DNA of 64,000 nt from an uncultured virus (IMG/VR IMGVR_UViG_3300001605_000032) (IMGVR_UViG_3300001605_000032:1-64000), one strand, 5' to 3'. Shown: positions 4,199 through 21,300, numbered from the stretch's first letter. A program made the numbers and translations. Notes: generated by a model not told the origin, from the letters alone.

Positions 4199-4381
4199 AT
4201 GGACGACGAAATCACAGCAGAGTTGTGGCTGCTCACGCACGCCGCTTTGAAGCGCAACCGCTACCGCATCGTGATCAAGACTCAAGACGGCACGTACTGG
4301 CGGCGAGAGTCCGACAAATCGTACGTGCTGCTCAGCAAGAAACCTAACGGCGAGCCCAAGGTGCAGCGTCTTGACCGATGA
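4199..4381 (+). CDS. hypothetical protein
   Basis: GGAGG RBS upstream; fills the gap in the operon. Confidence 0.55.
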   Translation: MDDEITAELWLLTHAALKRNRYRIVIKTQDGTYWRRESDKSYVLLSKKPNGEPKVQRLDR

Positions 4382-4856: not shown

Positions 4857-5112
4857 TTACGACATTGATCTGATGGAGACGATGCCGACACCGGATGAGG
4901 CCCGCTTGGGCGTCCTGCACGTGGAAGTGCTGCACTGGGGAAGAACCACGTTGGTGAAATTCATTGGCGGGAATGGCTTCGAGACGTTGGGCACGTACAC
5001 TGCCGGCCCGCGCAACAACGTGATCGACGCGCGAATTGCCATCGCTCGCGCGAATGCCACGCAGCGGCTGTGCCGGTGGCTGGATCGCCAGCAAGATAGG
5101 GCGCCAGCGTGA
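4849..5112 (+). CDS. hypothetical protein
   Basis: Overlaps the neighbouring genes in the same operon. Confidence 0.55.
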   Translation: MPDYDIDLMETMPTPDEARLGVLHVEVLHWGRTTLVKFIGGNGFETLGTYTAGPRNNVIDARIAIARANATQRLCRWLDRQQDRAPA

Positions 5113-5546
5113 ATCGCAAAGACCCAACGCTCACCGAAAAGCTGTGCACTATGATCCTGGTGTGGCTGGAAGTGCCGCACGTCAAAGCCAGGTCGATGTC
5201 TCGCGACGAGATCCTGGCGATGGTGGAATGGGATCACTATCCGGTGCCGTTTGCCGTCGCCCGCGACAATGGATGGATGATTCACGAGATCAACCATCCG
5301 TCTAATCTCAAGCCGACGTTGGCCGACGATCACGCTATCAAGACGGCGAAGAAGGATGTTCCGGAGATCGCCAAAGGCAAACGGATTTCGGCGAAGCACG
5401 CTGAGTTTCGTGAGCGCATACTGGCCAAGTCCGGAGTCGCGACAGAACCGGAGCGTCGCGACAGAAAAGTGTCGCGATTTGCTGGCGGTCGGAAGATGCA
5501 GTCGCGTCCGTTCAAACGCAGGCCACAAAACGGCAGGCAAGCATGA
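5109..5546 (+). CDS. degenerate HNH-like endonuclease
   Basis: EWDHYPVP...NHPSNL...DHAIKTAKKD matches the pattern of short alphaproteobacterial phage HNH proteins. Confidence 0.6.
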   Translation: MNRKDPTLTEKLCTMILVWLEVPHVKARSMSRDEILAMVEWDHYPVPFAVARDNGWMIHEINHPSNLKPTLADDHAIKTAKKDVPEIAKGKRISAKHAEFRERILAKSGVATEPERRDRKVSRFAGGRKMQSRPFKRRPQNGRQA

Positions 5547-6109
5547 AATCTCGGCGTGACATTCTGAAAGGCGGTGCTGCTGTTGCGGCGGCAGCTATCA
5601 TGCCAACCGTTCCCGTCGCCGCTATGGCAGTCACCAAAGCCGTTCCGGCCGCATCTCCGCCGTTGGTCGGTTGGTCGGTAGGCACGGAAGGGGCCATGAA
5701 TTGGGAGGCAGTATTTGCGCCAACGAGCGAGGATGCCATCAAGGAGTGGCTTTCAATCAAGGGAACGTGCGATGGCTGTCCGCACGACACGGGTGCAGAC
5801 GATGTGTGCGAGTGCTACCCAGATATTGACAGCCACAGATCAAAAGCGTTTGACCGCTACGCTGACGCGGATCGCGTTCCAGACACGGCTAAGCATCTCG
5901 ACGGGTGGTGCAACATTGATTGCGACCGCTGCGGATGGTCCAGTGACGAAACTGCATCTGAGGACGTGAACCATATTGTTGGCGACGAAATCGTTTGTGA
6001 GGGATGTATGACGTTAGTCGATTGGAAGATAGCAGACCCGGAATATTATGAAGAACAAGTTGAGTTGATGCTTGATGAGGAATACGGCGAAGAATCAAAA
6101 AGCGTATAG
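5543..6109 (+). CDS. twin-arginine (Tat) signal protein with Cys-rich domain
   Basis: MKSRRDILKGGAAVAAAA signal; CxxC motifs CDGC, CDRC and CEGC. Confidence 0.7.
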   Translation: MKSRRDILKGGAAVAAAAIMPTVPVAAMAVTKAVPAASPPLVGWSVGTEGAMNWEAVFAPTSEDAIKEWLSIKGTCDGCPHDTGADDVCECYPDIDSHRSKAFDRYADADRVPDTAKHLDGWCNIDCDRCGWSSDETASEDVNHIVGDEIVCEGCMTLVDWKIADPEYYEEQVELMLDEEYGEESKSV

Positions 6110-6121
6110 CAGGAGGTAGCC

Positions 6122-6337
6122 ATGCCGAGTGTCGTGACAGTAATCGTCGAGTGGCAGGGCGTAGACAAGCCAGCGCGTATCTCACGGGGAAACCGATCGT
6201 GGGATCAATGGCTCGGCGACGACACCATCAGGCAGATGGGGATGGCGAAAATATGCCAGTTCAAAGCGGAGCGTGTTGACGGCGTTTGGTTCATTGGCCC
6301 GCGTTGCGATGGGCGAGAGCGCAAGCAGATTGGATAG
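6122..6337 (+). CDS. hypothetical protein
   Basis: AGGAGG RBS; 71-aa ORF. Confidence 0.6.
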   Translation: MPSVVTVIVEWQGVDKPARISRGNRSWDQWLGDDTIRQMGMAKICQFKAERVDGVWFIGPRCDGRERKQIG

Positions 6338-6341
6338 AACA

Positions 6342-6503
6342 ATGCACACGATAGCAAGGCACAGCGCCGTGCCACTCATCACAGCGCTGATTATCGCTGC
6401 GATGGTGGTGGCCGTTCTGGAGTTTGGAACGGCGTCGGTTGGTCCACCGGATAGGGGACAGCCGGAATCGTTTTGGGAATCGTTGCGGGGAACGAATGGG
6501 TAG
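6342..6503 (+). CDS. small membrane protein
   Basis: MHTIARHSAVPLITALIIAAMVVAVLEFG hydrophobic helix. Confidence 0.5.
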   Translation: MHTIARHSAVPLITALIIAAMVVAVLEFGTASVGPPDRGQPESFWESLRGTNG

Positions 6504-6541
6504 GATGATGCAACAAGTGTAATGGCATGATGTGAATTTGC

Positions 6542-6611
6542 GTAGTCACAGTGACTACTATCCATCATAACATCAAACCAAGCGTAACCACAAAGTAGTC
6601 ACCATGACTAT
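6542..6611. promoter_or_regulatory. pair of palindromic operators
   Basis: GTAGTCAC-A-GTGACTAC (6542-6558, perfect) and GTAGTCAC-C-ATGACTAT (6595-6611), the latter overlapping the start of the HTH gene. Confidence 0.7.
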
Positions 6612-6942
6612 GACATGCTTTGAGATCAGAGCCGCGCTTGATGATTTGCGTATATCCCAGGCTAGGTTTGCTATTCTTTGTGGCGTGGATCGCCAACAAG
6701 TTTGGCGTTGGTGCGATGGCTGGACGCCAGTTCCTGAATACGCAAAGGCTTTGTTGTCCATGTTGAAATGCCGCGACCCGGTTCGCGTTTTGAACGGACA
6801 TCGCGAGACGTGGCAGGTCACCAAGCGCCACGTCTACCGACGCGGCACGACGTTCAAAGCGCTGGCCAAACGGTGGCATCCGGATGTGGCCGGCCGCGAT
6901 ACGACAGCCGAAATGCAGATAGTGTTGAGGTTCAGAACGTAG
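6604..6942 (+). CDS. XRE-type HTH protein fused to a minimal J-domain-like segment
   Basis: ISQARFAILCGVDRQQVWRWCDG HTH; C-terminal FKALAKRWHPDVAG with HPD motif. Confidence 0.7.
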   Translation: MTMTCFEIRAALDDLRISQARFAILCGVDRQQVWRWCDGWTPVPEYAKALLSMLKCRDPVRVLNGHRETWQVTKRHVYRRGTTFKALAKRWHPDVAGRDTTAEMQIVLRFRT

Positions 6943-7023
6943 GATGGCCCATAAACGCCCTTTCCCGATTGACGCATTTGCCGAACGGCAGTACATTTTG
7001 CACTGACTAGGGCAACGATCACC

Positions 7024-7119
7024 ATGACATCTGAACACATCATAACCATCTGTCTGATCATCGCCGTCATTGCCATCGCGGTTACTGCTGGATGGCTACT
7101 GAGCGACACCGAGGATTGA
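7024..7119 (+). CDS. 31-aa single-pass membrane peptide
   Basis: Translated by hand as MTSEHIITICLIIAVIAIAVTAGWLLSDTED; ends 2 nt before the exonuclease ATG. Confidence 0.5.
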   Translation: MTSEHIITICLIIAVIAIAVTAGWLLSDTED

Positions 7120-7121
7120 CC

Positions 7122-7988
7122 ATGCACGTTCACCTGATCGACGGCTCCGGCTACATCTACCGTGCATTCTACGGCTTGCCGCCGCTCACGCGTCCATCGG
7201 ACGGCATGGCCATCCACGCCGTGTACGGCTACTGCAAGATGCTCACCGCGATCGTCGATGAGCACGCGCCGCAGCACATGGCCGTCATCATGGACGGTGG
7301 GAGATCTGGAAGGACCGAGATCGATCCAGAGTACAAGGCCAACCGCAAGCCGCGTCCGCCAGAACTGATTGCGCAGATCGATCTGATGCACGAGGCCACG
7401 ACGGCTCACGGCATCGCGGCGATCAAGATCGACGGCATGGAGGCCGACGACGTTATCGCAACCTACGCCCGTATCATCAGCGACATGGGCGGCGAGGTGA
7501 CGGTGCACACTTCCGACAAGGATTTGATGCAACTGCTCACCATCGACGGTGTGCGGATGTTCGACCATCTGAAGCGACAAGACGTGACACCGGAGGTGTG
7601 CGCTACGCGGCTTGGCGTGACGCCCGATCAGGTGCTCGACTATCTGTCACTGGTTGGAGATGCCTCAGACAACATTCCAGGGGTGCCGGGCATCGGCGCG
7701 AAGTCGGCGGCGTCGCTGCTTCAAGTCCACGGCACGCTAGACGCCATCATTGAACTGGCTCAGACCAATCCGCCGATGCTGGCGTGCAAGCCAAAGCAAG
7801 CGCAGTCGATCGCCGACAATATCGAAACTGCGATACGCTCGCGCGATCTGGCTCGGTTGCGCGTTATCGATGATCTGCCGGAAGTCGATGGAATGGTGTT
7901 CGGTGGCTTGCCGTATGACCGGCTCATACCGTTCTGCGAAGCGTACGAGTTTGCCGAGATGGTCGGTAGGTATCGGGAGGCGGCATGA
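7122..7988 (+). CDS. stand-alone 5'-3' exonuclease / flap endonuclease (PolA N-terminal-like)
   Basis: LIDGSGYIYRAFY, YKANR, EADDVIAT, SDKDLMQL and LVGDASDNIPGVPGIGAKSA motifs. Confidence 0.92.
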   Translation: MHVHLIDGSGYIYRAFYGLPPLTRPSDGMAIHAVYGYCKMLTAIVDEHAPQHMAVIMDGGRSGRTEIDPEYKANRKPRPPELIAQIDLMHEATTAHGIAAIKIDGMEADDVIATYARIISDMGGEVTVHTSDKDLMQLLTIDGVRMFDHLKRQDVTPEVCATRLGVTPDQVLDYLSLVGDASDNIPGVPGIGAKSAASLLQVHGTLDAIIELAQTNPPMLACKPKQAQSIADNIETAIRSRDLARLRVIDDLPEVDGMVFGGLPYDRLIPFCEAYEFAEMVGRYREAA

Positions 7989-8239
7989 TCGACATGTGGC
8001 AACCGATTGCGACAGCGCCTATGGACGGCACATACGTCGACCTATGGTGCAAGCGTTCGTGGAATCCTCCGCAAACTCATGAGCGCTCAACTGATATGTA
8101 CTGGTGCAGAATACACAAGTGCTGGCGCAAGCGTGGAAATGAGCACGTCGTCGATACGTTTTGGAAGCCTAGTCCAGACCGGCATCTCATCCCGACGCAT
8201 TGGATGCCGGTTTTTTTGCCGCCGAGCGACAAGCCATGA
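7985..8239 (+). CDS. DUF551-like phage protein
   Basis: WQPIATAPMDGT...PTHWMP motifs. Confidence 0.8.
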   Translation: MIDMWQPIATAPMDGTYVDLWCKRSWNPPQTHERSTDMYWCRIHKCWRKRGNEHVVDTFWKPSPDRHLIPTHWMPVFLPPSDKP

Positions 8240-8580
8240 GCGAGCCACACGCCCTTGAAACGCCACTGACCATCGACGAGGTCGCGGTGCACCTTCGATG
8301 CACCACCCGAACCGTGCGCCGCATCCCGAAGGGCTGTTTGCCATGGCTCAAGATCGGCAAGGCACGGCAGTATCTACCATCCCACGTTCAGGCGTTTATG
8401 ATGGAGCAGGCATCAGGCAAGCCAGTTCCGAAGGAGATCGCGCCATGTGGGTCACGAAAATCAAGGCGTCGCCATTCTGGTACGCCAGATTCAACCATCC
8501 CGACCCCAGCAAACCCGTCGTTTCGGTCTCTACAAAGTGCGCGCACAAGCGGCAAGCGGTTGCTCGTGGACGCGAGCTAG
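8236..8580 (+). CDS. xis: excisionase-like HTH protein
   Basis: LTIDEVAVHLRCTTRTVRRI...LPWLKIGKARQY; directly upstream of and overlapping the integrase. Confidence 0.75.
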   Translation: MSEPHALETPLTIDEVAVHLRCTTRTVRRIPKGCLPWLKIGKARQYLPSHVQAFMMEQASGKPVPKEIAPCGSRKSRRRHSGTPDSTIPTPANPSFRSLQSARTSGKRLLVDAS

Positions 8581-9449
8581 AGGCAGAGTTCATCGCCGAT
8601 TGGGAGCGCAGCAAGGCAGGAGCGCCCAAGACACTTGGGCAGGTCATAGATGAGTATTGGGAGACCGAGGCGAAGGGGCTGAAGGCCGGCGTGACGCACG
8701 TGTTCCCGCATCTCGACAGGATCGACAAGTTCCTGGGCGGCAAGATGTACCACGAGATCACCATTGCCGACGTCGCACGGTTTGCCGATCAGATGGCGGC
8801 AGACGGGTTCTCGCCATCGACGATCAACCGGGCGCTGTCGGTATGGCGGCGCATGCACAATCTGGCGTTCAAGGTTCGGCTGTACCCGGTCAAGATGATC
8901 GACTGGTCAAAGGTCCGGCGCACGGAGCCACCGCCGCGCGATGCCCATCTGACGCACGATCAACTACACACGATCTTTTCGTCGTTGCCAACCCATGCGC
9001 GCGAGATCGCCATGTTTGGGTTGCTGGTCGGTTTACGCAAGAGCCAGGTGCTAACCTTGACCTGGGACAGCGTGGATCTGGATCACGGCACCGTCACGGT
9101 CTACCGCAAGCACAGGAAGGCGCAAGACCGGCATACGATCCCGATCCGTGAGGAAGCGTTGCGTCTGCTGGATCACCGTAAGGCGCTGGCAACGTCGGAC
9201 ATGGTATTCGACATCACCTACTTTAGGGGACATTGGGAAAAGGCCGTGAATGACGCCGGCATGAAGGGTCGTGTGCGGTTTCACGATCTGCGGCATTCGT
9301 TCGCAACGCTGGCAGCTCGCACGACACCACTCCACGTGCTTCAAGAGTTGCTGGGACACTCCGATATCAAGGTAACCATGCGTTACAGCCACGCAAGAGC
9401 GGGCGACATGAGGGCAGCGCTTAAGAGGCTGCCGGTGGTCGACGTTTAG
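8445..9449 (+). CDS. int: tyrosine recombinase (phage integrase)
   Basis: AAGGAG RBS at 8431; catalytic motifs GLRKSQ, FHDLRHSFA and LLGHSDIKVTMRY. Confidence 0.93.
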   Translation: MWVTKIKASPFWYARFNHPDPSKPVVSVSTKCAHKRQAVARGRELEAEFIADWERSKAGAPKTLGQVIDEYWETEAKGLKAGVTHVFPHLDRIDKFLGGKMYHEITIADVARFADQMAADGFSPSTINRALSVWRRMHNLAFKVRLYPVKMIDWSKVRRTEPPPRDAHLTHDQLHTIFSSLPTHAREIAMFGLLVGLRKSQVLTLTWDSVDLDHGTVTVYRKHRKAQDRHTIPIREEALRLLDHRKALATSDMVFDITYFRGHWEKAVNDAGMKGRVRFHDLRHSFATLAARTTPLHVLQELLGHSDIKVTMRYSHARAGDMRAALKRLPVVDV

Positions 9450-9631: not shown

Positions 9632-9876
9632 GACTTGCACGTTGACTTGCACGTTGTGCCACGTCCATTCGTGGTGCGTTCATGTCACGTCCGCGACTAC
9701 TCCTGTCCATCTTCAATAAAAAACCCAACGAAATCAATTCTATGTATGGTGTAGCCTTCGGTTTTCAAGACCGGTGCCTTAAACCACTCGGCCACCCATC
9801 CAGTCGTGTATTTTCAAGCACTTACGACAATGCACGCGTCGTGCCTGATGTCTAGTAACACGTCTATTTGCACGTC
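9632..9876. other. attP region with putative integrase arm-type repeats
   Basis: Tandem GACTTGCACGTT x2 (9632-9655) on the left and TAACACGTC/TTGCACGTC (about 9856-9876) on the right of the tRNA-homologous core; IHF-like TTTCAAGCACTTA near 9812. Confidence 0.75.
9759..9801 (-). other. att core: 5' half of tRNA-Ser(UGA)
   Basis: The minus strand reads GGATGGGTGGCCGAGTGGTTTAAGGCACCGGTCTTGAAAACCG and then stops resembling tRNA (no variable arm, T arm or 3' acceptor strand). Confidence 0.85.
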
Positions 9877-10245
9877 AGCCACACTGTATCACAAGCAACC
9901 CTAGATTTGTTCAGCCTCCTAGTCCGTCTTTAGTGTTGAGTAGTCCGGCTCGTATCCGTCTTCGGGCTTGAGCCATATGCAAACGTCGCGAACACCGATA
10001 TTGAACCGCCGACTGTCGATCTCAAACTCAACATCGCCGACGACGTATCTCCCGAACGGTTTGAGCCAGACCTTATCGCCAACGCGCGGAATGTGGTCGA
10101 GAGCGACGCATGCGATCGGCGCTTCACCGTCGCGGGCTTCGGTAGTGTCTCAGTTTGAAATCTGAGACATGCTTATGTCGGTTGACAGCGGGTGCAGGCG
10201 GGGCCATCTCCATGCTATGCTTAGCGCAAAGCAGGAGCAGTAATC

Positions 10246-10458
10246 ATGACATACAGAATTCAATTCTGCACCGATCCATGTCCGCAGTACCCCACCATAC
10301 TTGCGACTGAACTTGCCCCAACCAAAGAAGAAGCCGAGATGAAGGCCCGCGCTGGTTTTGATGATGCGAAGCAGAAGTTAGGCGCTGGCGGATGGCGCAT
10401 TATCGATTTGCTGGATCGACCCGTTGCGATGTGGATGGAGGGCGTCAGCGATGCCTAA
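10246..10458 (+). CDS. IS passenger hypothetical protein
   Basis: AGGAG RBS; 70 aa; overlaps the next gene. Confidence 0.65.
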   Translation: MTYRIQFCTDPCPQYPTILATELAPTKEEAEMKARAGFDDAKQKLGAGGWRIIDLLDRPVAMWMEGVSDA

Positions 10459-10681
10459 AGGCCCCAAGGGCGAGAAGCGCCCAGCCGACGTTGTCGCGAA
10501 CGCCGTGAAGGTGATGAAGATCGCCACGGGTGAGGAAGAAGACGAGAAGACTGACGACGGCAAGGATAAGGCCGCCGTCAGTCTAGGTAGGCGTGGAGGT
10601 CAGGCTAGAGCTGAAAAGATGAGCCCGGAAAGACGGGCTCAGATCGCCAAGAACGCGGCGGCCAAGCGGTGGAAAAAGTAG
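10451..10681 (+). CDS. small basic IS-associated protein (probable nucleic-acid binding)
   Basis: MPKGPKGEKRPADVVANAVKVMKIATGE...AAVSLGRRGGQARA...AAAKRW, a family I recall occurring beside this type of transposase. Confidence 0.8.
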   Translation: MPKGPKGEKRPADVVANAVKVMKIATGEEEDEKTDDGKDKAAVSLGRRGGQARAEKMSPERRAQIAKNAAAKRWKK

Positions 10682-10773
10682 GGACCAAACCTGACACCGC
10701 AAAACACGTCTTGCCATTCACATCATGATAGGTTAACCATCCGTCTACTGCAGCGGTTGACGGATGCCATGCC

Positions 10774-11232
10774 ATGGATCGACGCAACAACGATCTAGAC
10801 ATCGAAATGCTCCAGCTGGACGAGCGTAAGCTCAGGGAGATCGACGCTGAGCTTGCTCCAAAACTTGCGGAGCGTGCCGTTGTAGAGAAACGGGTGGCGT
10901 TACGACGCGAACTGTTGGCCTTGAGTGATGGCCAGCCTGACGACGTCAGCCTTTCGACGCCGACTCAGGCGGGGCTCGACAATACCCAGCAACACAGCAT
11001 CACGCTGGTTGAAGCTGTTCCCAAAGTCCTTCGCGACCACGGCCCGTTGAAGCCATCAGAGATCCGGTCTCGGCTGTCCTCGGTTGGCTTCACACAATCC
11101 TACAACGACAACTATTTTTACACGGTCATCAGCCGCTTGAGCAAATCCGGCGCGATTATTCGCACGCCAGACAAGAAGCTTGCCGTGCCAACACCTCAGG
11201 AAGCATCGTCATCAAACGAGGCGATGCACTGA
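10774..11232 (+). CDS. IS passenger: coiled coil plus putative winged-helix domain
   Basis: 152 aa; N-terminal coiled coil, then VLRDHGPLKPSEIRSRL...FYTVISRLSKSGAI. Confidence 0.65.
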   Translation: MDRRNNDLDIEMLQLDERKLREIDAELAPKLAERAVVEKRVALRRELLALSDGQPDDVSLSTPTQAGLDNTQQHSITLVEAVPKVLRDHGPLKPSEIRSRLSSVGFTQSYNDNYFYTVISRLSKSGAIIRTPDKKLAVPTPQEASSSNEAMH

Positions 11233-11241
11233 GCCAAAAAC

Positions 11242-11288
11242 AAAATCGCAGGCGACACCCACCGCAAAATGGATCGCCTGCGATTTTT
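11242..11288. terminator. 14-bp hairpin, possibly a bidirectional terminator
   Basis: AAAATCGCAGGCGA...TCGCCTGCGATTTT. Confidence 0.55.
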
Positions 11289-11538
11289 CCGAGCACCTGC
11301 CTAGCCAGCGGGTGGAACCGAGTGAGGCCCGTGGACCCGTGGCCGGGGGGTGGTACATGAGATAGTAGCACAGTTTCGCTGACAGTGAAGACCTAGGGTG
11401 GCGCCCGAGCGTCTTCCTGTGCAGCATCCGCCAATAATCGAACCGTGTTGCCGCCAGGGCTCACTAAGGGTCGTGGTCGTCTTGTCATGTGATCATATCA
11501 TGCTTGACGCTAAGCATAAAAGTTCATATATAGGAGCT

Positions 11539-11600
11539 GTGAACAAGCTCCCCAAAGCCAAGCGCGCACAGATCCTCTCGCTGCTCTGCGAGGGATCGTC
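11539..11600 (+). pseudogene. N-terminal stub of an IS1-like DDE transposase
   Basis: TAGGAG RBS then MNKLPKAKRAQILSLLCEGSS, recognisable as the start of this transposase family; the rest is missing. Confidence 0.75.
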
Positions 11601-11618
11601 AGTGAACTATCGGCGCTT

Positions 11619-12101
11619 ATGTCGTCTCTCAAGGGAGCCAAGGATATTGCGGAGACGATGATAGGTCTGCGGGACGCTGCCGCCCTTCAAGCCAAGTCCA
11701 TCGAATTTCAGTCCAAGATCCTTGACGCTCAGTCGCGCGCGTTCGCGGCTCAAGAGGAACGCACGTCGCTCGTTGAGCAAGTACGCGAGATTGAAAAAGA
11801 AGTTGCTCGCCTGAAAGATTGGAGCAGTGAGAAGCAACGCTACGAACTGAAGGAGCTTGGGAATGGGACGTTGGCTTACGCGGTGAAGGAAGCCATGCGC
11901 GGCTCCGAACCACCTCATTGGATATGTGCAAATTGCTACGAGGACGGCAAGAAGTCGTTGCTTCAGCCAGAGACCAGATTTCCCGGTCGGACGACTGTAT
12001 ATGTGTGTCATGGCTGCAGCGCGGAACTGATAGCATCAGGAGGCAGGGAGGTGGGCACACCAAGACAAACCCACGCCATTACCAAGAGCCTAGACAAGTA
12101 A
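11619..12101 (+). CDS. IS passenger: coiled coil plus zinc-ribbon protein (5' end probably clipped by the deletion)
   Basis: SSLKGAKDIAETMIGLRD, HWICANCYEDGKKSLLQ and CHGC; the frame is open upstream (VSELSAL) to about 11598. Confidence 0.7.
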   Translation: MSSLKGAKDIAETMIGLRDAAALQAKSIEFQSKILDAQSRAFAAQEERTSLVEQVREIEKEVARLKDWSSEKQRYELKELGNGTLAYAVKEAMRGSEPPHWICANCYEDGKKSLLQPETRFPGRTTVYVCHGCSAELIASGGREVGTPRQTHAITKSLDK

Positions 12102-12200
12102 ATTTCAAACTGAGACACTACCCGGGCTTCATCTTCGTTGCCCGTTCCGTCGTAGAACTCAACCTTGGCCACCATCGCCCGCCGTTCCTATGTAGTGTTG

Positions 12201-12306
12201 GTGCCTTAGACCGACCCTCGCGGGCGTGTCGCCGGACTTTGCGACATCATTGCTCGGTCTCTGCACACACCGCTGTCAGCCGTGCATGGGCCTCTGGCGG
12301 CGATCT
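12201..12306. ncRNA. candidate structured non-coding cassette
   Basis: No credible ORF; nested stems AGACCGA/TCGGTCT, TGTCGC/GCGACA, CCC-TCGC-GGG and TGCAC/GTGCA. Confidence 0.4.
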
Positions 12307-12309
12307 CTC

Positions 12310-12459
12310 CTATTTTGCTTTCGTCAGTGCGCTAGCTACCCACACAACAAGACACGGAATTAATACGCACAAAACAGTATAGCAAACGATTACCAGCCAA
12401 ATGCGCAGCGACAGCGGCACCGCTTGATAACGCAAGATCGCGTCGACCCAGGTTGGCAT
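12310..12459 (-). CDS. cassette gene: 49-aa membrane protein
   Basis: AAGGAG RBS; MPTWVDAILRY...IWLVIVCYTVLCVLIPCLVVWVA. Confidence 0.65.
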   Translation of the reverse strand: MPTWVDAILRYQAVPLSLRIWLVIVCYTVLCVLIPCLVVWVASALTKAK

Positions 12460-12473
12460 CAGCCGCTCCTTTG

Positions 12474-12731
12474 TCACTCGCGCTCGCCGAGACGGCGCAG
12501 CGCTGAATCTCGAATTGGCGTTCCGACCAAAAACGGTTGATCGACAGAGACGCCAGTGTTGCCCGCCCACGACAGTTCGCGCTTGTCGTGGTGCAGATAG
12601 ACCACCGCGCCGAGCAGTTCACCGATCGGCTCCGGCACCGCTAGCACGGCGTCGATACCGGCCAACAGCTCGTCCAGTGTTGGCTCTGTCGGCGTGAGCG
12701 CCGGATCGGTGCACGTCATTGGCTCGCGCAT
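12474..12731 (-). CDS. cassette gene, hypothetical
   Basis: GAGGAG RBS; 85 aa. Confidence 0.65.
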   Translation of the reverse strand: MREPMTCTDPALTPTEPTLDELLAGIDAVLAVPEPIGELLGAVVYLHHDKRELSWAGNTGVSVDQPFLVGTPIRDSALRRLGERE

Positions 12732-12741
12732 CTGCCTCTCC

Positions 12742-13044
12742 TCATGTGGCGGTTGGCTTTGCCGACGCCGCCATGCCTACGAGAAACGGCATGGCCATGT
12801 TCGGCGTAATCTCAAGCGGCATCCAGAGTCGGATGCGCTGCGTGGTGCCGTCGTCGTCGAGATACGAAAAATGGTGCAGCTTGTAGTGCTCCAACTGAAG
12901 CGCCGTTGTCGCCGATAGTTCCAAGCCATCAGCCGTGATCATCGTTGCAAGTTTGACCGGCGTCGGTACTACCAGCTGCGGCCCAACTTTGTCGGGGTCG
13001 AACATCCGACCATGCCCCCAACCGCCGATGACTGTCCCGTCCAT
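12742..13044 (-). CDS. cassette gene, hypothetical
   Basis: 100 aa; tightly packed with neighbours. Confidence 0.65.
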   Translation of the reverse strand: MDGTVIGGWGHGRMFDPDKVGPQLVVPTPVKLATMITADGLELSATTALQLEHYKLHHFSYLDDDGTTQRIRLWMPLEITPNMAMPFLVGMAASAKPTAT

Positions 13045-13050
13045 CTTCCT

Positions 13051-13323
13051 CTACCTTTCCGCTTTGTCGATCTTGCGCGCCGCTTCCTGAATACGTTCTT
13101 CAAGAAGGCGACCAAGCGAGTCTAAGAACAGACGCGCGCCATCATTCGGTTCTAGATCACCGCCATAAGCAAACCGTCCATCGATCAGATCAAGCCACAT
13201 TGCCTTTCCGTCGCGAGTTAACACGATCCATCGCGGCGTTACGACATTGGTCAACAGCGATGCACTATGCGACTTTGCACATTTGCACTCGTGCTCCGGC
13301 GCCAGCCCCTTGCAGCATTCCAT
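13051..13323 (-). CDS. cassette gene, hypothetical with Cys-rich N-terminus
   Basis: TAGGAG RBS; 90 aa. Confidence 0.65.
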   Translation of the reverse strand: MECCKGLAPEHECKCAKSHSASLLTNVVTPRWIVLTRDGKAMWLDLIDGRFAYGGDLEPNDGARLFLDSLGRLLEERIQEAARKIDKAER

Positions 13324-13334
13324 CAGCCAGCCTC

Positions 13335-13613
13335 CTATGTAGTCTTGATCTCGTTGCCGTTACGATCAAACCGCATCCCATGGCTTGATTGGGAGAGGTT
13401 GATTGCAGCATTGAGCGCGTTGCTAATGCTCATGAACCGACCCCGTAGCCACCCATCATGACCACTGCCCAATGTTGCGGCCACGTGGGCTGTTTGGTTC
13501 ATGATTTTTGCTAGACGTAGATTGTCCGCCTCGAGTTCAGCAATGCGCTGGTCCTTCTCTGCCAGCGCCGCTTCGAGTTCGGCGGCCATCAAACGACCGT
13601 CGCGCATCGTCAT
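13335..13613 (-). CDS. cassette gene, coiled-coil protein
   Basis: AGGGAG RBS; LAEKDQRIAELEADNLRL. Confidence 0.65.
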   Translation of the reverse strand: MTMRDGRLMAAELEAALAEKDQRIAELEADNLRLAKIMNQTAHVAATLGSGHDGWLRGRFMSISNALNAAINLSQSSHGMRFDRNGNEIKTT

Positions 13614-13638
13614 CTCCCTCATCGTCTTGCTGTGGTGT

Positions 13639-14091
13639 TCAGTCGCTGTCGTCTTCTTCAAACTTGGACAGGTCCGCCGTCCACTTCGCAATCTTCCCGT
13701 CGCCGTCGATCTCCATGATCACGTAGTCGCCATAGCCCTCGCCTTCCGGGCACATGATCGGGGGCACATACCCGTCGATTGCCTTGACGACGTTGCGATC
13801 AGCATCCAGCAATTCATAGTCGCCGTCGTCGCAACATTTGTAGTGGATGCTGGCAGTTGTCCCCTTCGGCCAGTTCTCAATGATGCCCGTGTCGAGGTCG
13901 ATCGTCGGGCACCAGTTGCCGCCGCCAAGATGGTCGTTATCGGCAGCCGTTCCCTCGCGCAGCGGAATGCGTGATCCGTCCGTGTCTTCCTCGCCGTTGA
14001 CAGTCGCGTCTTCCCAATAGCGCACGCCGCAACGTGCGCGGATGTACTTCACCGGGATTGACTTCGTTTCCTTCAGGCGTAGCGCGTGCAT
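13639..14091 (-). CDS. cassette gene, conserved-looking acidic phage protein
   Basis: GVRYWEDATVNG...WCPTIDLDTGII.NWP...GYGDYVIMEIDGDGKI; 150 aa. Confidence 0.75.
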   Translation of the reverse strand: MHALRLKETKSIPVKYIRARCGVRYWEDATVNGEEDTDGSRIPLREGTAADNDHLGGGNWCPTIDLDTGIIENWPKGTTASIHYKCCDDGDYELLDADRNVVKAIDGYVPPIMCPEGEGYGDYVIMEIDGDGKIAKWTADLSKFEEDDSD

Positions 14092-14110
14092 CGTCCTCTC
14101 CAATACCGTC

Positions 14111-14386
14111 TTAGGCCGCCGCAGCGGCAGGCGCGTGAGCGAGTATGGTTTCCAGCGACACGCCGTTGCGGGTTTCATCCTCGCGGATCATGTCGCGGCT
14201 GACTGGCTCGTCGTAGAAGTAATGGATGCGGCGGCAGCCGCAGCGCACCTGCACGATGCGGCCTCGCTTTGCCGTGCAGTATCGTAACTCAATCGGATCA
14301 TCCAGCGATGCAATGTCTTGCACCACGTCAGCTTCCAAGCTGGCGCCGGTATCGCTGTCGTAAAGGTCCATGCTTCGATCTGCCAT
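14111..14386 (-). CDS. cassette gene, hypothetical
   Basis: AGGGAG RBS; starts MADRSMDLYDS; 91 aa. Confidence 0.6.
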   Translation of the reverse strand: MADRSMDLYDSDTGASLEADVVQDIASLDDPIELRYCTAKRGRIVQVRCGCRRIHYFYDEPVSRDMIREDETRNGVSLETILAHAPAAAAA

Positions 14387-14396
14387 GACTTCTCCC

Positions 14397-14567
14397 TCAC
14401 CGTTTTGATAGGCCGAGCCGGGCCGCCACCATCTTCGCGATAGTGAGTGGAGCGACCCATCCTTCGTCAAGCAGCGCCGTCACGTGCGCATCGATCTCCG
14501 GCGCGTCCACGGCGTCGGGCAAACCTAGCGCACGCCGAACCGACAGGCGTATTTGATCCCTGGTCAA
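14397..14567 (-). CDS. cassette gene, 56-aa hypothetical (TTG start)
   Basis: Translated by hand as MTRDQIRLSVRRALGL...RLGLSKR*; exactly fills the space between two junctions. Confidence 0.6.
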   Translation of the reverse strand: MTRDQIRLSVRRALGLPDAVDAPEIDAHVTALLDEGWVAPLTIAKMVAARLGLSKR

Positions 14568-14576
14568 CGAGTGCTC

Positions 14577-14810
14577 CTATCTTGCTGAACGTCTATTGTC
14601 GCGACGGATCACATACTCCGCCAGCTTGCGAGCGCGTTTCGCGCTACTGAATGGCGGATGTTCGTTGCGATCGCGAAGCGCGTTCATGAACCCCCAGCGA
14701 TACGACAGGCTGCGGTTCGACGACGGACGCGGCGCACTCCGATCATAGCCGTCCATAAACCCCTGCGTCATCTCGCGCTCTGCGAAAGACATGCGATCAA
14801 GCCAGTCCAT
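14577..14810 (-). CDS. cassette gene, hypothetical
   Basis: TAGGAG RBS; EMTQGFMDGYD...NRSLSYRWGFMN. Confidence 0.65.
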   Translation of the reverse strand: MDWLDRMSFAEREMTQGFMDGYDRSAPRPSSNRSLSYRWGFMNALRDRNEHPPFSSAKRARKLAEYVIRRDNRRSAR

Positions 14811-14819
14811 CGGTTCCTC

Positions 14820-14996
14820 CTATCTTGCAATTGAACGTGGCAGTCGCGCTGCATACCGCTCATTTGCCAAGCGCGCTCTTTCGTAGGCGCGATCCCTGCG
14901 CTGACAAATCGTGACAGGCCTGCGCAGACGAGACGGCCTCATGATTTTTACGATCCCGATCACCTTGAGCGCGTTCCACTTTGGTCGGCTGCGCAT
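14820..14996 (-). CDS. cassette gene, 58-aa Arg-rich peptide
   Basis: Translated by hand as MRSRPKWNALKVIG...RSIAR*; fills the space between junctions. Confidence 0.55.
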   Translation of the reverse strand: MRSRPKWNALKVIGIVKIMRPSRLRRPVTICQRRDRAYERARLANERYAARLPRSIAR

Positions 14997-15005
14997 TTTC
15001 CGCTC

Positions 15006-15263
15006 CTATGGATTCTTAGGCAACGGCAGCGGTGCGTAGTGACACTCCCGACGAAACGCTCGCCGCTTCGGATTGTCGTTCTCGTCAACCGCGTCGCCGT
15101 AGTCGATCATCGTTTGGCGAAGCTGCATCGCCTCGGCGTATGGCTTGGCGCCGAACGCGCAGCGGATCAAAATCCAAATGCCGTGCATCACCAGCGTCTC
15201 GAACATGCGCTGCCGGAATGCAGGCTTCTCCTGGATGTTGGCGTGCCACAAGCTATCAGCCAT
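15006..15263 (-). CDS. cassette gene, hypothetical
   Basis: TTGGAG RBS; starts MADSLWHANIQ; 85 aa. Confidence 0.6.
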   Translation of the reverse strand: MADSLWHANIQEKPAFRQRMFETLVMHGIWILIRCAFGAKPYAEAMQLRQTMIDYGDAVDENDNPKRRAFRRECHYAPLPLPKNP

Positions 15264-15282
15264 CGTCCGCTCCAATCCCGTC

Positions 15283-15608
15283 TTACGTGCTGAGCATAGC
15301 GCGGGTTCGCGCCAGCGTGTCGAGACACCCGTAGCCGGCCACGATGGCCAATTCTTCGAACTTTCGGCGCCGCTGCTCGGCTTGGGCGGCGAGGTGGTTG
15401 ATCGCCCGTATGGCCCCGTCTGCGCGGTAGTAGTCAGGGCCGATTCGCCCGTCATCGCTACGTCGCGGTCGGTCGCAGTCGTTGGACGTTCGCGCTCGTG
15501 CTTCCAGGCAGTGAGATCGCCACGGATAAAAATTGCGGACGAGCGGTAATGCTCGACCATCTGCGTGTAGTGCTCGACGTAGCGCCGAGCGGTCCATTCG
15601 TCGCTCAT
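15283..15608 (-). pseudogene. cassette gene with apparent frameshift
   Basis: The start frame (MSDEWTARRY...) differs from the frame ending at the junction TAA (...DGRIGPDYYRADG...AMLST*); the shift is near 15450. Confidence 0.5.
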
Positions 15609-15619
15609 CCCTGCCTCCC

Positions 15620-15853
15620 TCAGATTCTTGCCATGGCCTTTGCCCGTCGGAGGTGGCGCCTATAGCCATTCGACGGGCGACGGTACGTCGTTATTGAAAA
15701 CCGAGACTGGTCAAACACCAGATCCACGTGATGGCGAACGGCGTTTGGCGACCCGATCAGAAACAGCCGCTCGCCTGAGCGCATACGATGGCCCGGCATC
15801 GTTACAACCGTGAGATCGGAACCAGCTCGGGCTAGATCAACCGCTATAATCAC
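15620..15853 (-). CDS. cassette gene, hypothetical
   Basis: MIIAVDLARAGSDLTVV...SNGYRRHLRRAKA. Confidence 0.65.
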   Translation of the reverse strand: MIIAVDLARAGSDLTVVTMPGHRMRSGERLFLIGSPNAVRHHVDLVFDQSRFSITTYRRPSNGYRRHLRRAKAMARI

Positions 15854-15871
15854 GAGCGCTCCATTCCCGTC

Positions 15872-16132
15872 TTATCTGTTGAACTTTGCAGCGGACGGCT
15901 TGTGCCCGGCGCGGGTTGCCCTCTTGCGGAACTCGTACACGGCAGAACGCAGACCCGACCATGCGTCAGACACCATATCCGGGTGGATGTGATGCCGCCC
16001 ACCGTTCTCGACCTGATCGCGGTACTTGTCCGACACATCAAGGTAGTGGTCGGCTGCAACCGCCATGTACTCGCCGAACTCGATGGCGTAGTCGGCATCG
16101 GTGCGGGGCTTTGGGTTATCTGTATATGCCAT
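15872..16132 (-). CDS. cassette gene, hypothetical
   Basis: GGGAGG RBS; DYAIEFGEYMA...LRSAVYEFRKRA. Confidence 0.7.
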   Translation of the reverse strand: MAYTDNPKPRTDADYAIEFGEYMAVAADHYLDVSDKYRDQVENGGRHHIHPDMVSDAWSGLRSAVYEFRKRATRAGHKPSAAKFNR

Positions 16133-16144
16133 CCATCCTCCCTC

Positions 16145-16384
16145 TCAGTCTTTGCTGACAAGCGCGCGGCGCTCGTCCGTCATTTCAGCCGAGACCATGT
16201 CGGCCCACTCTTGCTCGTTGCCGGCATTGTCAGCCGCAAGAAAGATGGCGGACAGTGCTGCCTGAAGCATCAGGATGCGGTCAATAGCATCTGCGGCTGT
16301 GCGCTCGTAATCTTTCATGTGCTCGCGCGTTGCGTTGCCCATGAGGCCGCGCAGTCGCTCCACAACCGGGTAATCGTTTGTCAC
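16145..16384 (-). CDS. first cassette gene after the recombinase, hypothetical
   Basis: TAGGAG stop/RBS overlap; VVERLR...AADAIDRI. Confidence 0.65.
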   Translation of the reverse strand: MTNDYPVVERLRGLMGNATREHMKDYERTAADAIDRILMLQAALSAIFLAADNAGNEQEWADMVSAEMTDERRALVSKD

Positions 16385-16393
16385 GTTCCGCTC

Positions 16394-17056
16394 CTACCTA
16401 GTTTTACGTTTGCTTCGCGTCCGTGGCCCGTCTGGCCACAGTTTCTTACCCGTCGTCTTTAAGACCTTCTCCCGCAGCGTGACATTGGCCACGCCCATCC
16501 GCCGCGCCACTACGCCAACAGGCTGGCCGGCGCGCAGCATCGCTATCGCACGTTGCAACTTGGCTTCCGTGAGGCGCGGCTTGGGTCCGAACCGCACGCC
16601 GTGGCGCTTGGCGGTCTCCATGCCCAGCTTGGTCCGCTCCGCAATCAGGTTGCGTTCAAACTCAGCCAGGATGCCAGCAAGCTGAAACATCAGCCGCCCC
16701 ATGGGCGTTGTCGTGTCGAGCTGTTCGTGGATGCTGCGGAGCTGGATGCCGCGCGTTTCGAGATCGTCGAAGATCATCACGAGGTCGCGAATGGACCGGC
16801 TGAGCCTGTCGAAGCGCCAGACCATGATGCCCTCGCCGCTGCGAACGTGGGCAAGCATGTCTTGCAAGCCCGTGCGCTTGGTGTTCTTGCCGCTCGCCTT
16901 GTCCTGATAGATGCGGTCGCGCTCGACACCGCCCTCTCTCGTAAGGGCTTCGATCTGCATTCGCAGGTCTTGGTCGTCAGTCGAGACGCGCGCGTAGCCG
17001 TGCCACAAGATGGCGTCCGGTTTGTCCACAGGGGCGATTTTGTTTGTGCGTCGCAT
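16394..17056 (-). CDS. small serine recombinase (resolvase/invertase family)
   Basis: GYARVSTDDQ (catalytic Ser), VWRFDRLSRS, AEFERNLIAERT, GVRFGPKP and a C-terminal HTH. Confidence 0.93.
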   Translation of the reverse strand: MRRTNKIAPVDKPDAILWHGYARVSTDDQDLRMQIEALTREGGVERDRIYQDKASGKNTKRTGLQDMLAHVRSGEGIMVWRFDRLSRSIRDLVMIFDDLETRGIQLRSIHEQLDTTTPMGRLMFQLAGILAEFERNLIAERTKLGMETAKRHGVRFGPKPRLTEAKLQRAIAMLRAGQPVGVVARRMGVANVTLREKVLKTTGKKLWPDGPRTRSKRKTR

Positions 17057-17109
17057 AAGACGGTATTGCCACAATCCCGCTTTACATGCAAGCGGCGATT
17101 TGCTATATC
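17056..17109. promoter_or_regulatory. 29-bp palindrome at the recombinase start, with overlapping sigma70-like promoter
   Basis: TAAGACGGTATTG-CCA-CAATCCCGCTTTA (17056-17084); TTTACA-N17-TATATC (17081-17109) on the + strand. Confidence 0.65.
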
Positions 17110-17451
17110 AACAACGCCAATGAGTTTGGCCTCTGACGCGGAGGTGCAAGATGCGGCCGATACCTCAAATGGCCGTGAGAGAACCAGCGGGCGCCGGCAG
17201 CAATCGGGGCGCGCAAATCAGAAAGCGGAGAACGCCGCTATGAATCCGCCCACGATAGAAGAAGCGTCAAAGCGATTTTGCCCGTTTACGTTCGCCCCCA
17301 ACCAACATAGGCCGCCATGTGTGACGAACCCGACCCTTTTGAGCACTCAGAACCGTGGTGTCGTATTTGCCGGGTCATGATGTTCTGGCGCGATGCGTGG
17401 GGATCTTGGGTCTGCCCGAAATGTGGGAATTGGGAGTAGGAAGGGCCGGTC

Positions 17452-18396: not shown

Positions 18397-21300
18397 TTAT
18401 TTCATACTAGCACGCCGAATAATCGCCATCGCCTGCTCAATGGAATCTGTGTCGAGCTTCGGAACCTCTACGCTGCCACCACTGGCACGACGTGCCGCTT
18501 GCGGAACTGGCGTTTCCCATGGGGGTGTCGCGCGGCGTTGATCCGGTGTCATCCGCTGCCGTTCTGCATGTATGCGAGCATCTGCGACGGTCTTGATCTC
18601 GTCGGGTTCATCGGTCTCGTACAGCCACTGGCCGTTGCGCTTGAACCAGTTGGTTGCGTCCCAGATCTCCTTGGGTGACGCGCCACGCTTGGCCATAATG
18701 ATGGCTGTGGTGTAGGCGTTGATGTCTGCGCCTGGAGAAGTAATCGTGCCGAACGAGAGTGCCGGGCCGGTAGCACCAAACCGAACAATCTGCTGATCCT
18801 CCGGCACGTCGTAGTCAAGCCAGGGAGGACGGGCGCGACGCTCATCTGCCGTCATGTCCATGCGCTTCTGGACGGCGCGGGCTTCGACTTCGCCAGCAAA
18901 CCGTCGATAAACGCTGTCAGCCAGCGATTGCGGTGTCGTTACGTCAACATTAGTCCATGCGTCCATTCCGGTCGGGTCTTTGCGCGCACTCAAATCGGCC
19001 AGCGCCTTGGCATATTCCGGAGTTTGCTTGGCGATAGCTAAATTGCTCCCACCGTCAAAGCCCTCATCCTTCTGGATTGCGTGTGTCCCTTCATGCAAGG
19101 CTGTACTCTTGAACTCCTTTGGTGCCAACGCTTCGTTGAACCCAAACGTATTCCGTGTTGGGTTGAACGTACCTCGTGCGCCACTACCTTCGCGAAGCAA
19201 TCCCGCCGAGTATGCCATGATATCAGGATATGCGGAACTCAGGCCGTCGTGCTGCAACAAGTTACGCAACTGCAGCATGCCATCTCCACCACGAGCCTCC
19301 ATTGCGGAAGCGTATGCGCCGCCAGCACTCGGAGCCATCGGAACGCCGTTGCGACGTTCGATCCATTGCCGCATTGGAACGGGTGAACCAGCCCCACTAT
19401 CATCGATCTCGAACCGCCACTTGCCATCGACACCACGGAACCATCCCGTGTCGGTCCAGATCTGATCGCGTGTCGATCCATCCGCCTCCAGCTGCTTGGC
19501 GCGAGCGAGAGCATCCATGTCGGCCGTCTTGGCGCGCTCGCCGCCGAACGCGAACATGGCCTGTCCGCGTTCCATCACATCAGCCTTGATCTTGGGCGTC
19601 AGTGGGAACAGCGTGAAGCCGTTTCCCTTCATGCCGGAAGGGGTTTCGAGTTCGTCCACCTTGATCGGCTTGGCGCTGTCCTTGTCCAGCTTTTCGAGGA
19701 TTTTGCGCAGGTTCTTGGGGACGATTCCGTCGATCAGTCGGTCGCTTGCCTTCTCAATCACTTTGAGCCGCTTGAATATCGCATCAACCTTGGCCGCCGT
19801 GTCATCGACATCCTTGCGGGCAGTCTTGAGTTCGGTGGCGCTGTTCGGCGTGGTGCGTTCGGCGTTCCGCTTCCGAACTTCCGTTTGGGACGCTAGAGCT
19901 TGATTGTATTCCCATTCCGCGTCTTTCAGATCGGCCTTCAGCTTGTTATACTCATCAGCGCTGCGAACCTGCGTGGCCCCGTAAAACCCACGCATCCCGC
20001 CTTCATCGCCAGGATTGTAGCTCAGCACCGTATCGCCACTCGGGATCGCGATATAGGCCGCATCTGCTTCTGCCGCCTGACGGAGTGCACGGCGGAGTGT
20101 CGTCGTCGTCCACTGGTCGGTGGTGTTGACGAGGGGATTGCCGGGAGTGGCGGCTTGTGCCGTTTCCAATTCAGCACGCAAGCGTGCGATTTCCGACGCC
20201 TGCTGCGGCTCAAGATTTTTCATCTTAGTCAACTCGGCAAGCGCCGACTTCGTGTTCGGCCCGTCAAAACCGTTTCGGAGTTCATAAACCAGCTTGCTGA
20301 TCGCTTCGTCGAGATTGTAGTTGCGCTGGTATAGCGCCTCTTGCGCCTCTTGTGATATTTTCAGTGCTTCAATCTCAGAGCGCAGCCGTGCGATCTTACC
20401 CTCATCCCTGACGCCTCCATCCCTGAGCTTCTGCCCCCAATCGCTCTGGATTTGGTCGATGAGGTATACCGGCTGGCCCTCATGCTTGACCATTGACGTC
20501 ATCATATGGCCGATGATGTTGGGCTCGGGGAAATGGCCGGAGCGGAAACCAGCGTTCAGCGTCATTGTCTCCTTTGGCTGCACCACTGCACCGGGAGGGG
20601 CCGCGCGCCGAGCGTTTTCCTCAGTGTCGTATGTGGCGCTGCGCTGCGTTGCCGGGTCAAACCATTCCCATGCGTAAAGGCGCTTTTCAGTGTCCGGCAG
20701 ATGCAGCACCGTCTCCCTGTAGGTGGGGTTCGATGGATCGATGGAGTAGGAGGACCATTTAGTGGAGCGCTGGCCTTCAACGGCCCATTGATCCTCTGTG
20801 ATGCGAATTATCGAGCCATCTGGGAATTTGTAACCAACGGCGCTTGAGTTCGGAATGTCGATCTCGCGCCCCTTCAACTGTTCGATGATGTCAAACATGC
20901 CTTGACCGCTTCGCGTGGTCTCAGCGTTGATATCGTAGTCCATCAGTCGCGCAAAAGTGTCGGCCGCTGTTGTTCCGCTGCGGTCAAATCCGTAATTGCT
21001 CTCCCTCAGCCCCACCCTATTTGCTTCCAGGTGGGCCACTATCTCGTCACGGGTGATGGACTTCTTGCCGTCGAGGAAACCACGCAACCCTGTCGCCTCG
21101 ATCTCCGCATCCTTGACGCCTGCGGATTTAAGCTGCGCCAGCATCTGCTCTGGCGTGCCGCGAGATTGTTTAAGGTCTCGTGCCACTTCCAATGCATGAG
21201 AGTAGTAGCCGAGTGTGTCTTGGTCGCGCAGGCGCTGGCGCTGGATGGCAAACAGCGTGTCTTTGCCCTGCTTTGCCAGATCCTGCGTGAACTTGGCCGC

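Follow-up and report, generated by a model that had tools for sequence, protein, structure and literature searches.

Start-associated sequences (SAS) of Cluster K mycobacteriophages, with the consensus GGGATAGGAGCCC, are present in 11–19 copies in one orientation; in the parts of the report available to us no function is established for them, a translational one being presumed (Pope et al. 2011, PMC3203893). In T4-type phages, recombination between copies of the promoter-early stem-loop (PeSL) shuffles single-gene cassettes and can yield mini-circles, with no dedicated recombinase according to the sections at hand (Arbiol et al. 2010, PMC2839356), and termination–reinitiation coupling is described, in the accessible parts of two studies, for overlaps and very short gaps generally (Huber et al. 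2019, PMC6728339; Huber et al. 2023, PMC10666635). Here we analyze a series of small minus-strand genes in the DNA of an uncultured virus, a temperate phage (IMG/VR IMGVR_UViG_3300001605_000032), in a window of 64,000 nucleotides (nt) that represents the first 64 kb of its 68,778-bp record. The genes follow that of a small serine recombinase and are joined by a recurrent 15-nt bipartite element, AAGAC-N4-WD-GGAG, hereafter the linker. Within the phage the linker is restricted to this one operon, it is co-inherited with the recombinase clade, and gene content breaks at its GGAG. With confidence slightly better than even, we interpret it as a portable stop–restart element for translational coupling, at which genes would also be exchanged.

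The linker resembles SAS in being a short asymmetric repeat with a Shine-Dalgarno core, which precedes the start codons of non-structural genes of different families by a few nt and sometimes holds the upstream stop codon. Compared with what the consulted parts of that report contain, it differs in its sequence and bipartite form, in its confinement to one operon, in its tie to a recombinase clade across unrelated backbones, in having mapped breakpoints and in a terminal copy without a gene (PMC3203893). PeSL cassettes likewise involve a regulatory element that is repeated among the small ORFans of a plastic region; in the available sections, however, PeSLs are much longer modules of promoter and terminator, whereas the linker occupies 15–25 nt within one transcript and carries neither signal (PMC2839356). 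Breakpoints fall at linkers, and joints were not seen among assembled contigs. Like integrons, the locus combines promoterless, co-oriented, mostly unknown single-gene cassettes with a neighboring recombinase gene, has one more site than genes, and varies in its first cassette between close relatives. Unlike integrons, the recombinase is of the serine type instead of an IntI tyrosine enzyme and is co-transcribed upstream of the array, the junction is a ribosome-binding site, and no attC-like inverted repeat is present, as the dyad symmetry of the 15 conserved nt lies below random (palindrome score 6.08 versus 7.05 ± 0.90 at random positions). Short stop-to-start distances and a ribosome-binding site within the upstream gene end are shared with termination–reinitiation coupling, although the linker stands apart from what the accessible parts of those studies describe, being one sequence that is used repeatedly and has a conserved AAGAC in addition (PMC6728339, PMC10666635). 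Our literature search returned no report combining a serine recombinase, integron-like arrays and phage gene cassettes in this sense.

A bipartite linker confined to one operon

The original prediction, made from sequence alone, had listed twelve minus-strand copies of the motif. All of them were recovered by a regular expression of that motif, which yielded 14 matches on the minus strand, 12 of them at 9930–16405, and none on the plus strand. Allowing up to one mismatch, AAGACNNNNWDGGAG matched 16 times in the window, compared with a mean of 3.28 (sd 1.80, maximum 7) in shuffled sequences, 0 of 100 of which reached this number; eleven of the 16 matches, including all seven exact ones, lie on the minus strand at 9916–16405. 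Gene models were taken from our own map of open reading frames (ORFs) and coding scores. On this basis GGAG precedes 13 of the 15 array starts at a distance of 3–12 nt, and is so placed at 16 of the 75 remaining predicted genes (P 2.8e-6). Where GGAG is present, AAGAC with at most one mismatch stands at a fixed offset from it at 10 of 13 array starts versus 1 of 16 starts elsewhere (P 2.6e-4), confirming the expected enrichment over other ribosome-binding sites of the genome. Early-operon junctions that had been named as lacking the AAGAC element do lack it, and the motif is not present in the other operons of the phage. Sixteen junction positions result from the gene model: 12 with the motif (one with two mismatches), two with a shortened AAGATAGGAG form and two without.

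Conservation ends at the edges of the 15 nt and does not extend to the 3′ side of GGAG. Upstream genes end at three different places in the motif: TAA stops stand immediately ahead of AAGAC, and TGA and TAG stops overlap the bases that precede GGAG. The offset of AAGAC is fixed regardless of the reading frame. As the stop codon occupies several motif positions, the conservation is not a protein-coding effect, in line with the earlier proposal that it lies at the DNA level. Promoter-like sites number two in 9 kb against 3.7 expected, neither of them at a linker, and no terminator-like site was found at any linker. With promoters at chance level, co-oriented units and unrelated content, the previously suggested layout of promoterless single-gene units joined by the motif is borne out.

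Two alternatives bear on these features. An ordinary operon of morons, in which the linker is a locally favored combination of stop codon and ribosome-binding site with no role in exchange, would be consistent with the W and D positions, which are largely set by TAG or TGA stops overlapping GGAG; we consider it unlikely, given that AAGAC at a fixed offset in any frame and the absence of the motif from the phage's other operons are left unexplained. Alternatively, the motif might be an RNA-level target through which a factor acting in trans co-regulates the operon, for instance a nuclease that processes the transcript or a repressor of translation directed at early ribosome sites of the GGAG type. 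The strict confinement of the motif to one strand and to one operon and the strong preference for GGAG relative to the rest of the genome agree with such a target. It is nevertheless very unlikely, as the window and a related array in a second phage (G006, see below) share no conserved candidate factor except the recombinase, and an Rfam scan returned no family matching at the linkers.

Arrays accompany one recombinase clade

Close relatives of the recombinase are rare: a first scan of viral sequences returned none above 37% identity, and species genomes yielded one weak hit. A metagenome scan identified the loci L152 (79% identity), L153 (80%), L154 (67%), L155 (64%) and L156 (51%), and an alignment-based viral scan added G006 (L338–L341, 80%), a 46.7-kb record rated 100% complete. 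All six relatives (51–80% amino acid identity) display linker-type junctions after the recombinase gene, with the motif at 5 of 6 junctions in G006, 2 of 2 in L153 and 1 of 1 in L152, and with looser forms in L154, L155 and L156. The pattern has seven forward matches in G006 versus one in the control, five of which coincide with junctions of a five-gene array (recombinase|A, A|B, C|D, D|E and after E), and the B|C junction is devoid of the motif. This array probably spans the end and the start of the record. G006 is otherwise almost unrelated to the window phage by tblastx, and neither a tyrosine integrase nor any PF00589 match was found in it. In the recombinase gene of L152, an in-frame TAG at ~672–674 replaces the GAG of L153, pointing to a pseudogene or to an error in sequencing.

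The recombinase is the only gene common to the arrays of the window, G006 and L152–L156. Array content is nearly wholly different, with one homologous cross-array pair among 32 proteins compared, namely the window gene at 14111–14386 and the first gene of L153 (41%). Arrays were not found at any of 82 loci harboring more distant serine recombinases, and among 74 viral loci containing the exact 15-mer only G006 has an array. Phages related through structural genes (G001–G005) lack the recombinase and show the motif at control level; G001 is collinear with 28.5–68.7 kb of the genome, and the array region is absent from it. A first junction pattern gave 61 single hits in viral contigs, approximately chance by a rough estimate, and at nine multi-hit loci inspected by eye the hits fell inside coding regions and were not followed by a start codon. 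A DNA-level search of a phage collection revealed nothing matching 9900–17100.

Gene content breaks at GGAG

Across the recombinase gene L152 and L153 share 93% identity, which is lost immediately behind the GGAG of the first linker. Homology also ends at or just after GGAG between L154 and L155, G006 and L152, and G006 and L153. The gene that follows the recombinase is a different one in each relative, and this holds even where the recombinase genes are 93% identical at the nucleotide level. The anticipated combination of recombinase homologs with different cassette content and breakpoints at the motif is therefore found in the relatives seen. Within the window, read-level data consisted of assembled contigs of four runs of one sample, possibly the source of the record, in which rare variants drop out. 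In all four runs a 283-nt contig covers 15859–16141, exactly from GGAG to GGAG, at a depth of 10–11.6 compared with 6.2–6.9 in its flanks, and the 30-mers at its ends are unique in the genome. The extra depth and the unique ends together imply that this gene is present letter for letter in a second context of the same sample. Its product has matches of at least 88% identity in at least 27 contigs, whereas, the 150-amino-acid (aa) gene aside, the exact proteins of seven of its eight other singleton-family neighbors occur in 1–5 contigs and that of the eighth in 1. Relatives of this 86-aa gene among viral contigs were limited to one distant locus, where the motif is absent.

The 150-aa protein encoded at 13639–14091 is cysteine-rich and belongs to a 90% cluster of 29 members; no match was obtained in Pfam, PHROG or NCBIfam, and the ESM Atlas gave no usable hit. 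Homologs of its gene occur at 53 viral loci with 28–68% G+C, the closest of which shows 84% nucleotide identity from GGAG to the stop codon and none outside. Neither the motif nor the recombinase is found at any of the homologous loci. A protein with a twin-arginine-type (TAT) signal from another operon of the window (5543–6109) shares 60% identity over 40 aa with the product of the first array gene of L155 (9657–10211). Genes therefore move between the array and other operons, and the motif stays behind.

Linker sequences also recur between arrays. GGAGACCACG followed by a start codon is found in L152, G006 and L155, and one interior linker of the window is a single base off the recombinase-end linker of L152, L153 and G006. 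The end of the array is visible in three cases, and all three finish with a full linker that is followed by no real gene: the copy at 9930 in the window, one in L155 succeeded by a 13-codon ORF, and one in G006 succeeded by a convergent gene. The copy at 9930 had been described as having no ORF after it; it is indeed gene-less on its far side, yet the final array gene, which is split by a transposon, has its stop codon there.

In favor of the ordinary moron operon are the gaps of 6–31 nt, which force any viable joint into the linker, and the homolog of the first array gene of L155 in a motif-free operon of the window. That explanation accounts neither for identical 15-mers and spacers before unrelated genes in different phages nor for gene-less terminal linkers in three of three arrays.

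The recombinase as a candidate agent

The resolvase/invertase-type recombinase that had been predicted is confirmed by a Pfam match to Resolvase (PF00239, 1.1e-43), next to a marginal HTH_7 match (3.4e-4, 21.1 bits versus a cut-off of 23.8), and by a PHROG match to DNA invertase (7.8e-57). It is ~42% identical to Cin and other phage invertases, and among solved structures Gin invertase matches best (1.5e-35), better than gamma-delta resolvase. The YARVSTDDQ stretch can be aligned with Gin; both it and DRLSRS are invariant in five members of the clade. With its catalytic motifs intact, the enzyme appears to be active. Clade members carry a conserved C-terminal extension past the part aligning to Gin, and the window protein has extra N-terminal residues as well. 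While the enzyme is thus similar to those of Gin, Cin, Hin and multiple-inversion systems, the locus is unlike them in these terminal residues and in its repeats, which are direct and asymmetric. Inverted repeats near the recombinase gene did not exceed chance, and no inverted crossover sites or invertible segment were found.

Known small serine recombinases act as dimers on sites composed of two inverted half-sites. The claim that the linkers provide such half-sites is unsupported: no pair of inverted half-sites around a 2-bp center and no dyad symmetry could be identified in the linker, and a core pattern of invertase sites matched 14 times against 15.5 expected, which is no enrichment. Joints at motifs were not seen in the assembled contigs either; as only contigs were available, this does not constitute evidence against excision.

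A phage “serine integron”, in which the Gin-like recombinase inserts, excises and reorders promoterless cassettes at the linker by crossover in or beside GGAG and uses its own 3′ end as the primary site, would fit many of these observations. The recombinase is the sole gene shared by arrays of unrelated phages, G006 has it without a tyrosine integrase, its catalytic motifs are intact and its clade has a conserved extension beyond Gin. The first gene after it changes even at 93% identity, n genes are bounded by n+1 linkers including gene-less terminal copies (3/3), the shared unit at 15859–16141 has GGAG at both edges, and an interior linker nearly equals the recombinase-end linker of three relatives. 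Against this stand the 15 asymmetric nt with sub-random dyad symmetry where known sites have two inverted half-sites, the lack of conservation 3′ of GGAG, the invertase core at chance level, the absence of convincing inverted repeats near the gene and of joints in contigs that drop rare variants, the 53 viral loci at which homologs of the 150-aa gene do without motif and recombinase, and a co-occurrence explicable as linkage by descent. We therefore rate this model as rather unlikely; what keeps it alive is the restriction of the motif to this clade and the gene-less end of every array. The wider proposition that the Gin-like clade captures and excises single-gene cassettes at AAGAC-N6-GGAG, as a module moving between unrelated phage backbones, is unlikely. 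Of the initial idea that the recombinase inserts, excises and reorders cassettes, the cassette-like architecture stands, while the sole link to the enzyme is co-occurrence.

A proposed stop–restart linker as the probable site of gene exchange

In the interpretation that we favor, the linker would consist of the A-rich AAGAC patch, the upstream stop codon, a strong GGAG ribosome-binding site, a 5–6-nt spacer and the next start codon, and would chain ~15 unrelated small accessory genes into one operon beside attP. A promoter ahead of the recombinase gene would drive transcription of the operon, with probable translational coupling between successive genes. Gain, loss and exchange of genes would take place within the linker, at or beside GGAG. 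Phages infecting the same cell would probably recombine there illegitimately or through short homology, selection would act on the products, and the integron-like layout of n genes and n+1 linkers would be the outcome. Since the linker represents nearly the only non-coding DNA of the array, with stop-to-start gaps of 6–31 nt, viable joints must fall into it; as it also recurs in related arrays, gene turnover happens within the linker. The architecture is supported as cassette-like, with single genes bounded at GGAG and a content that turns over faster than the recombinase diverges. The recombinase would then be a conserved neighbor and not the agent of exchange.

Several points weigh against a translational linker with enzyme-free exchange. 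Motif arrays occur only with this recombinase clade, which fits a functional tie as well as it fits shared descent, and the gene-less terminal linker at three of three array ends is unexplained by a pure ribosome-binding role. Imperfect identity over 15–25 nt is short for homologous recombination. In favor of the interpretation, left halves of the linker recur across arrays before unrelated genes in 15 pairs versus 6.5 expected (P 0.0016), and spacers in 7 pairs versus 3.4 expected (P 0.045), but these column-shuffle nulls ignore correlations with the type of stop codon and count three homologous junctions separately. RNA folding does not predict significantly more open start regions in the array than for other genes (0.49 versus 0.44, P 0.13). 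By our reasoning AAGAC would not pair contiguously with a 16S rRNA 3′ end.

If the linker acts as both translation signal and exchange point, it would constitute a simple rule by which temperate phages assemble and swap unknown accessory genes, and a sequence tag for finding such gene stores. Its strict co-occurrence with one active-looking recombinase clade in unrelated phages may reflect either a new cassette-capture system or an integron-like architecture that arises without a dedicated enzyme.

Organization of the array and its surroundings

Coordinates are compiled in Table 1. Searches of Pfam and PHROG assigned no function to any of the 14 small array genes. Owing to five extra bases in the record, two genes read as one spurious ORF of 200 aa; without these bases, the ORF starting at 15608 encodes 106 aa and stops at 15283–15285, the TAA of the motif at 15284. 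This copy had seemed to lie inside an ORF because of the extra bases, and it is a true junction. Between an 85-aa gene and the last array gene, a 275-nt gap at 12200–12473 contains no convincing ORF and may be a decayed cassette.

Table 1 Features of the array region and its surroundings, in window coordinates
Feature	Positions	Strand	Remarks
Small serine recombinase, 220 aa	16394..17056	-	ATG 17056, alternative TTG 17074; first gene of the operon
Conserved stretch 5′ of recombinase gene	17057..17115	-	promoter-like; contains 19-nt palindrome
Linker copy 1, AAAACTAGGTAGGAG	16391..16405	-	joins recombinase to 79-aa gene
Linker copy 2, AAGACTGAGAGGGAG	16138..16152	-	its GGAG is the upstream edge of the shared 283-nt contig
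Linker copy 3, AAGACGGGAATGGAG	15859..15873	-	last G of GGAG is the downstream edge of the shared 283-nt contig
Linker copy 4, AAGAATCTGAGGGAG	15615..15629	-	regular expression and AAGACNNNNWDGGAG match
Linker copy 5, AAGACGGGATTGGAG	15270..15284	-	identical 15-mer at one G006 junction
Linker copy 6, AAGAATCCATAGGAG	15003..15017	-	regular expression and AAGACNNNNWDGGAG match
Linker copy 7, AAAACGGTGAGGGAG	14392..14406	-	regular expression and AAGACNNNNWDGGAG match
Linker copy 8, AAGACGGTATTGGAG	14098..14112	-	regular expression and AAGACNNNNWDGGAG match
Linker copy 9, AAGACGATGAGGGAG	13614..13628	-	10 nt past stop of 150-aa gene
Linker copy 10, AAGACTACATAGGAG	13332..13346	-	regular expression and AAGACNNNNWDGGAG match
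Linker copy 11, AACACTACATAGGAA, 2 mismatches	12185..12199	-	precedes split last gene
Terminal linker copy 12, AAGACGGACTAGGAG	9916..9930	-	contains stop of split last gene; no gene beyond
Fourteen co-oriented small genes, 56-150 aa	12474..16384	-	ORF and coding-score map
Array genes, first part	16145-16384, 15872-16132, 15620-15853, 15283-15608, 15006-15263, 14820-14996, 14577-14810	-	
Array genes, second part	14397-14567, 14111-14386, 13639-14091, 13335-13607, 13051-13323, 12742-13044, 12474-12731	-	
Last array gene, 5′ part	12123..12175	-	up to transposon insertion; includes one 8-bp target-duplication copy
Last array gene, 3′ part	9919..10140	-	includes other duplication copy (10133-10140) and TAG in terminal linker
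Five single extra bases in record	15459, 15462, 15479, 15481, 15491		omitted by contigs of all 4 runs
IS1-family transposon remnant	10141..12122	+	outside array proper; 21-nt inverted ends and 8-bp target duplication
Probable attP core, 5′ half of tRNA-Ser-like gene	9759..9802	-	contig depth, Rfam, sequence reading
Plus-strand operon	79-9449	+	encodes RecT and 5′-3′ exonuclease; last gene is tyrosine integrase
Tyrosine integrase	8445..9449	+	Pfam Phage_integrase 5.5e-25; convergent with array, beyond attP

No ribosome-binding site was found before the recombinase gene. Nucleotide homology with L152 and G006 extends ~46–56 nt upstream of its ATG, and the conserved stretch at 17057–17115 may function as a promoter; a second copy of its palindrome was not found. 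The idea of a promoter for a phage polymerase was dropped, because a Pfam scan of 29 larger proteins gave no RNA polymerase.

The minus-strand series of small genes runs from 17056 down to 12474, and the structural genes of the phage are podovirus-like. An ORF of 2757 aa at 18397–26670 shares parts (~19981–21228) with G006 at 58–78% protein identity, the two phages otherwise having little in common. At the other end of the array, the presence of attP, as previously suggested, is supported by a tRNA-Ser-like half at 9759–9802. Contig depth there is ~300 compared with ~6 elsewhere, many other contigs share the stretch, and their loose ends resemble tRNA; Rfam gave a sub-threshold tRNA match at 9743–9801, and ARAGORN found no whole tRNA. 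The attP core apparently corresponds to the 5′ and not the 3′ half of the tRNA gene, and is placed between the array and the convergent tyrosine integrase.

A transposon remnant splits the last array gene

The original prediction counted ~17 same-strand units up to attP, which does not hold, as 10141–12122 is an inserted transposon remnant. In the coding-score map this segment contains four plus-strand ORFs (10246–12101), separated from the plus-strand operon by a non-coding stretch. Its inverted ends are perfect over 21 nt (10141–10161 and 12102–12122), and both are flanked by the same 8 bp, CGGGCTTC. In-silico removal of 10141–12130 results in a single open frame of 88 aa, from the ATG at 12175 to the TAG in the motif at 9930, and the four ORFs therefore belong to the insertion. 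An inversion switch considered for 10141–12122 was dropped in favor of transposition, based on the direct 8-bp duplication and the restored frame.

Transposons of the IS1 family have terminal inverted repeats and a target duplication of 8–9 bp. The ends and duplication of the remnant agree with these family values. It encodes an 87-aa transposase stub (11398–11661), a conserved small protein (10451–10681) and three other ORFs. A full-length relative in L231 matches PF03400 with 29 bits (cut-off 24.1) and NCBIfam transpos_IS1 with 67.9 bits, below the cut-off of 100. The 21-nt end sequence was not found in the literature searched. Its exact 21-mer occurs in 98 viral-contig stretches (L160–L257) with 34–67% G+C and 86 distinct ends, and similarity among copies stops right at the 21 nt. 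Sizes range from 396 bp to ~4 kb. Of the 10 paired copies listed, eight have the 8-bp target duplication, which in one of them agrees at 7 of 8 bases; two of the 10 represent the same element at two loci. Full-length copies encode a 299–343-aa protein with a weak IS1-type DDE match, the conserved small protein and varied cargo, including HTH-M78 peptidase and Abi_2 proteins. The one contig joint observed within the region, from 11529 to 12105 (side 20 nt), corresponds to another copy of the transposon.

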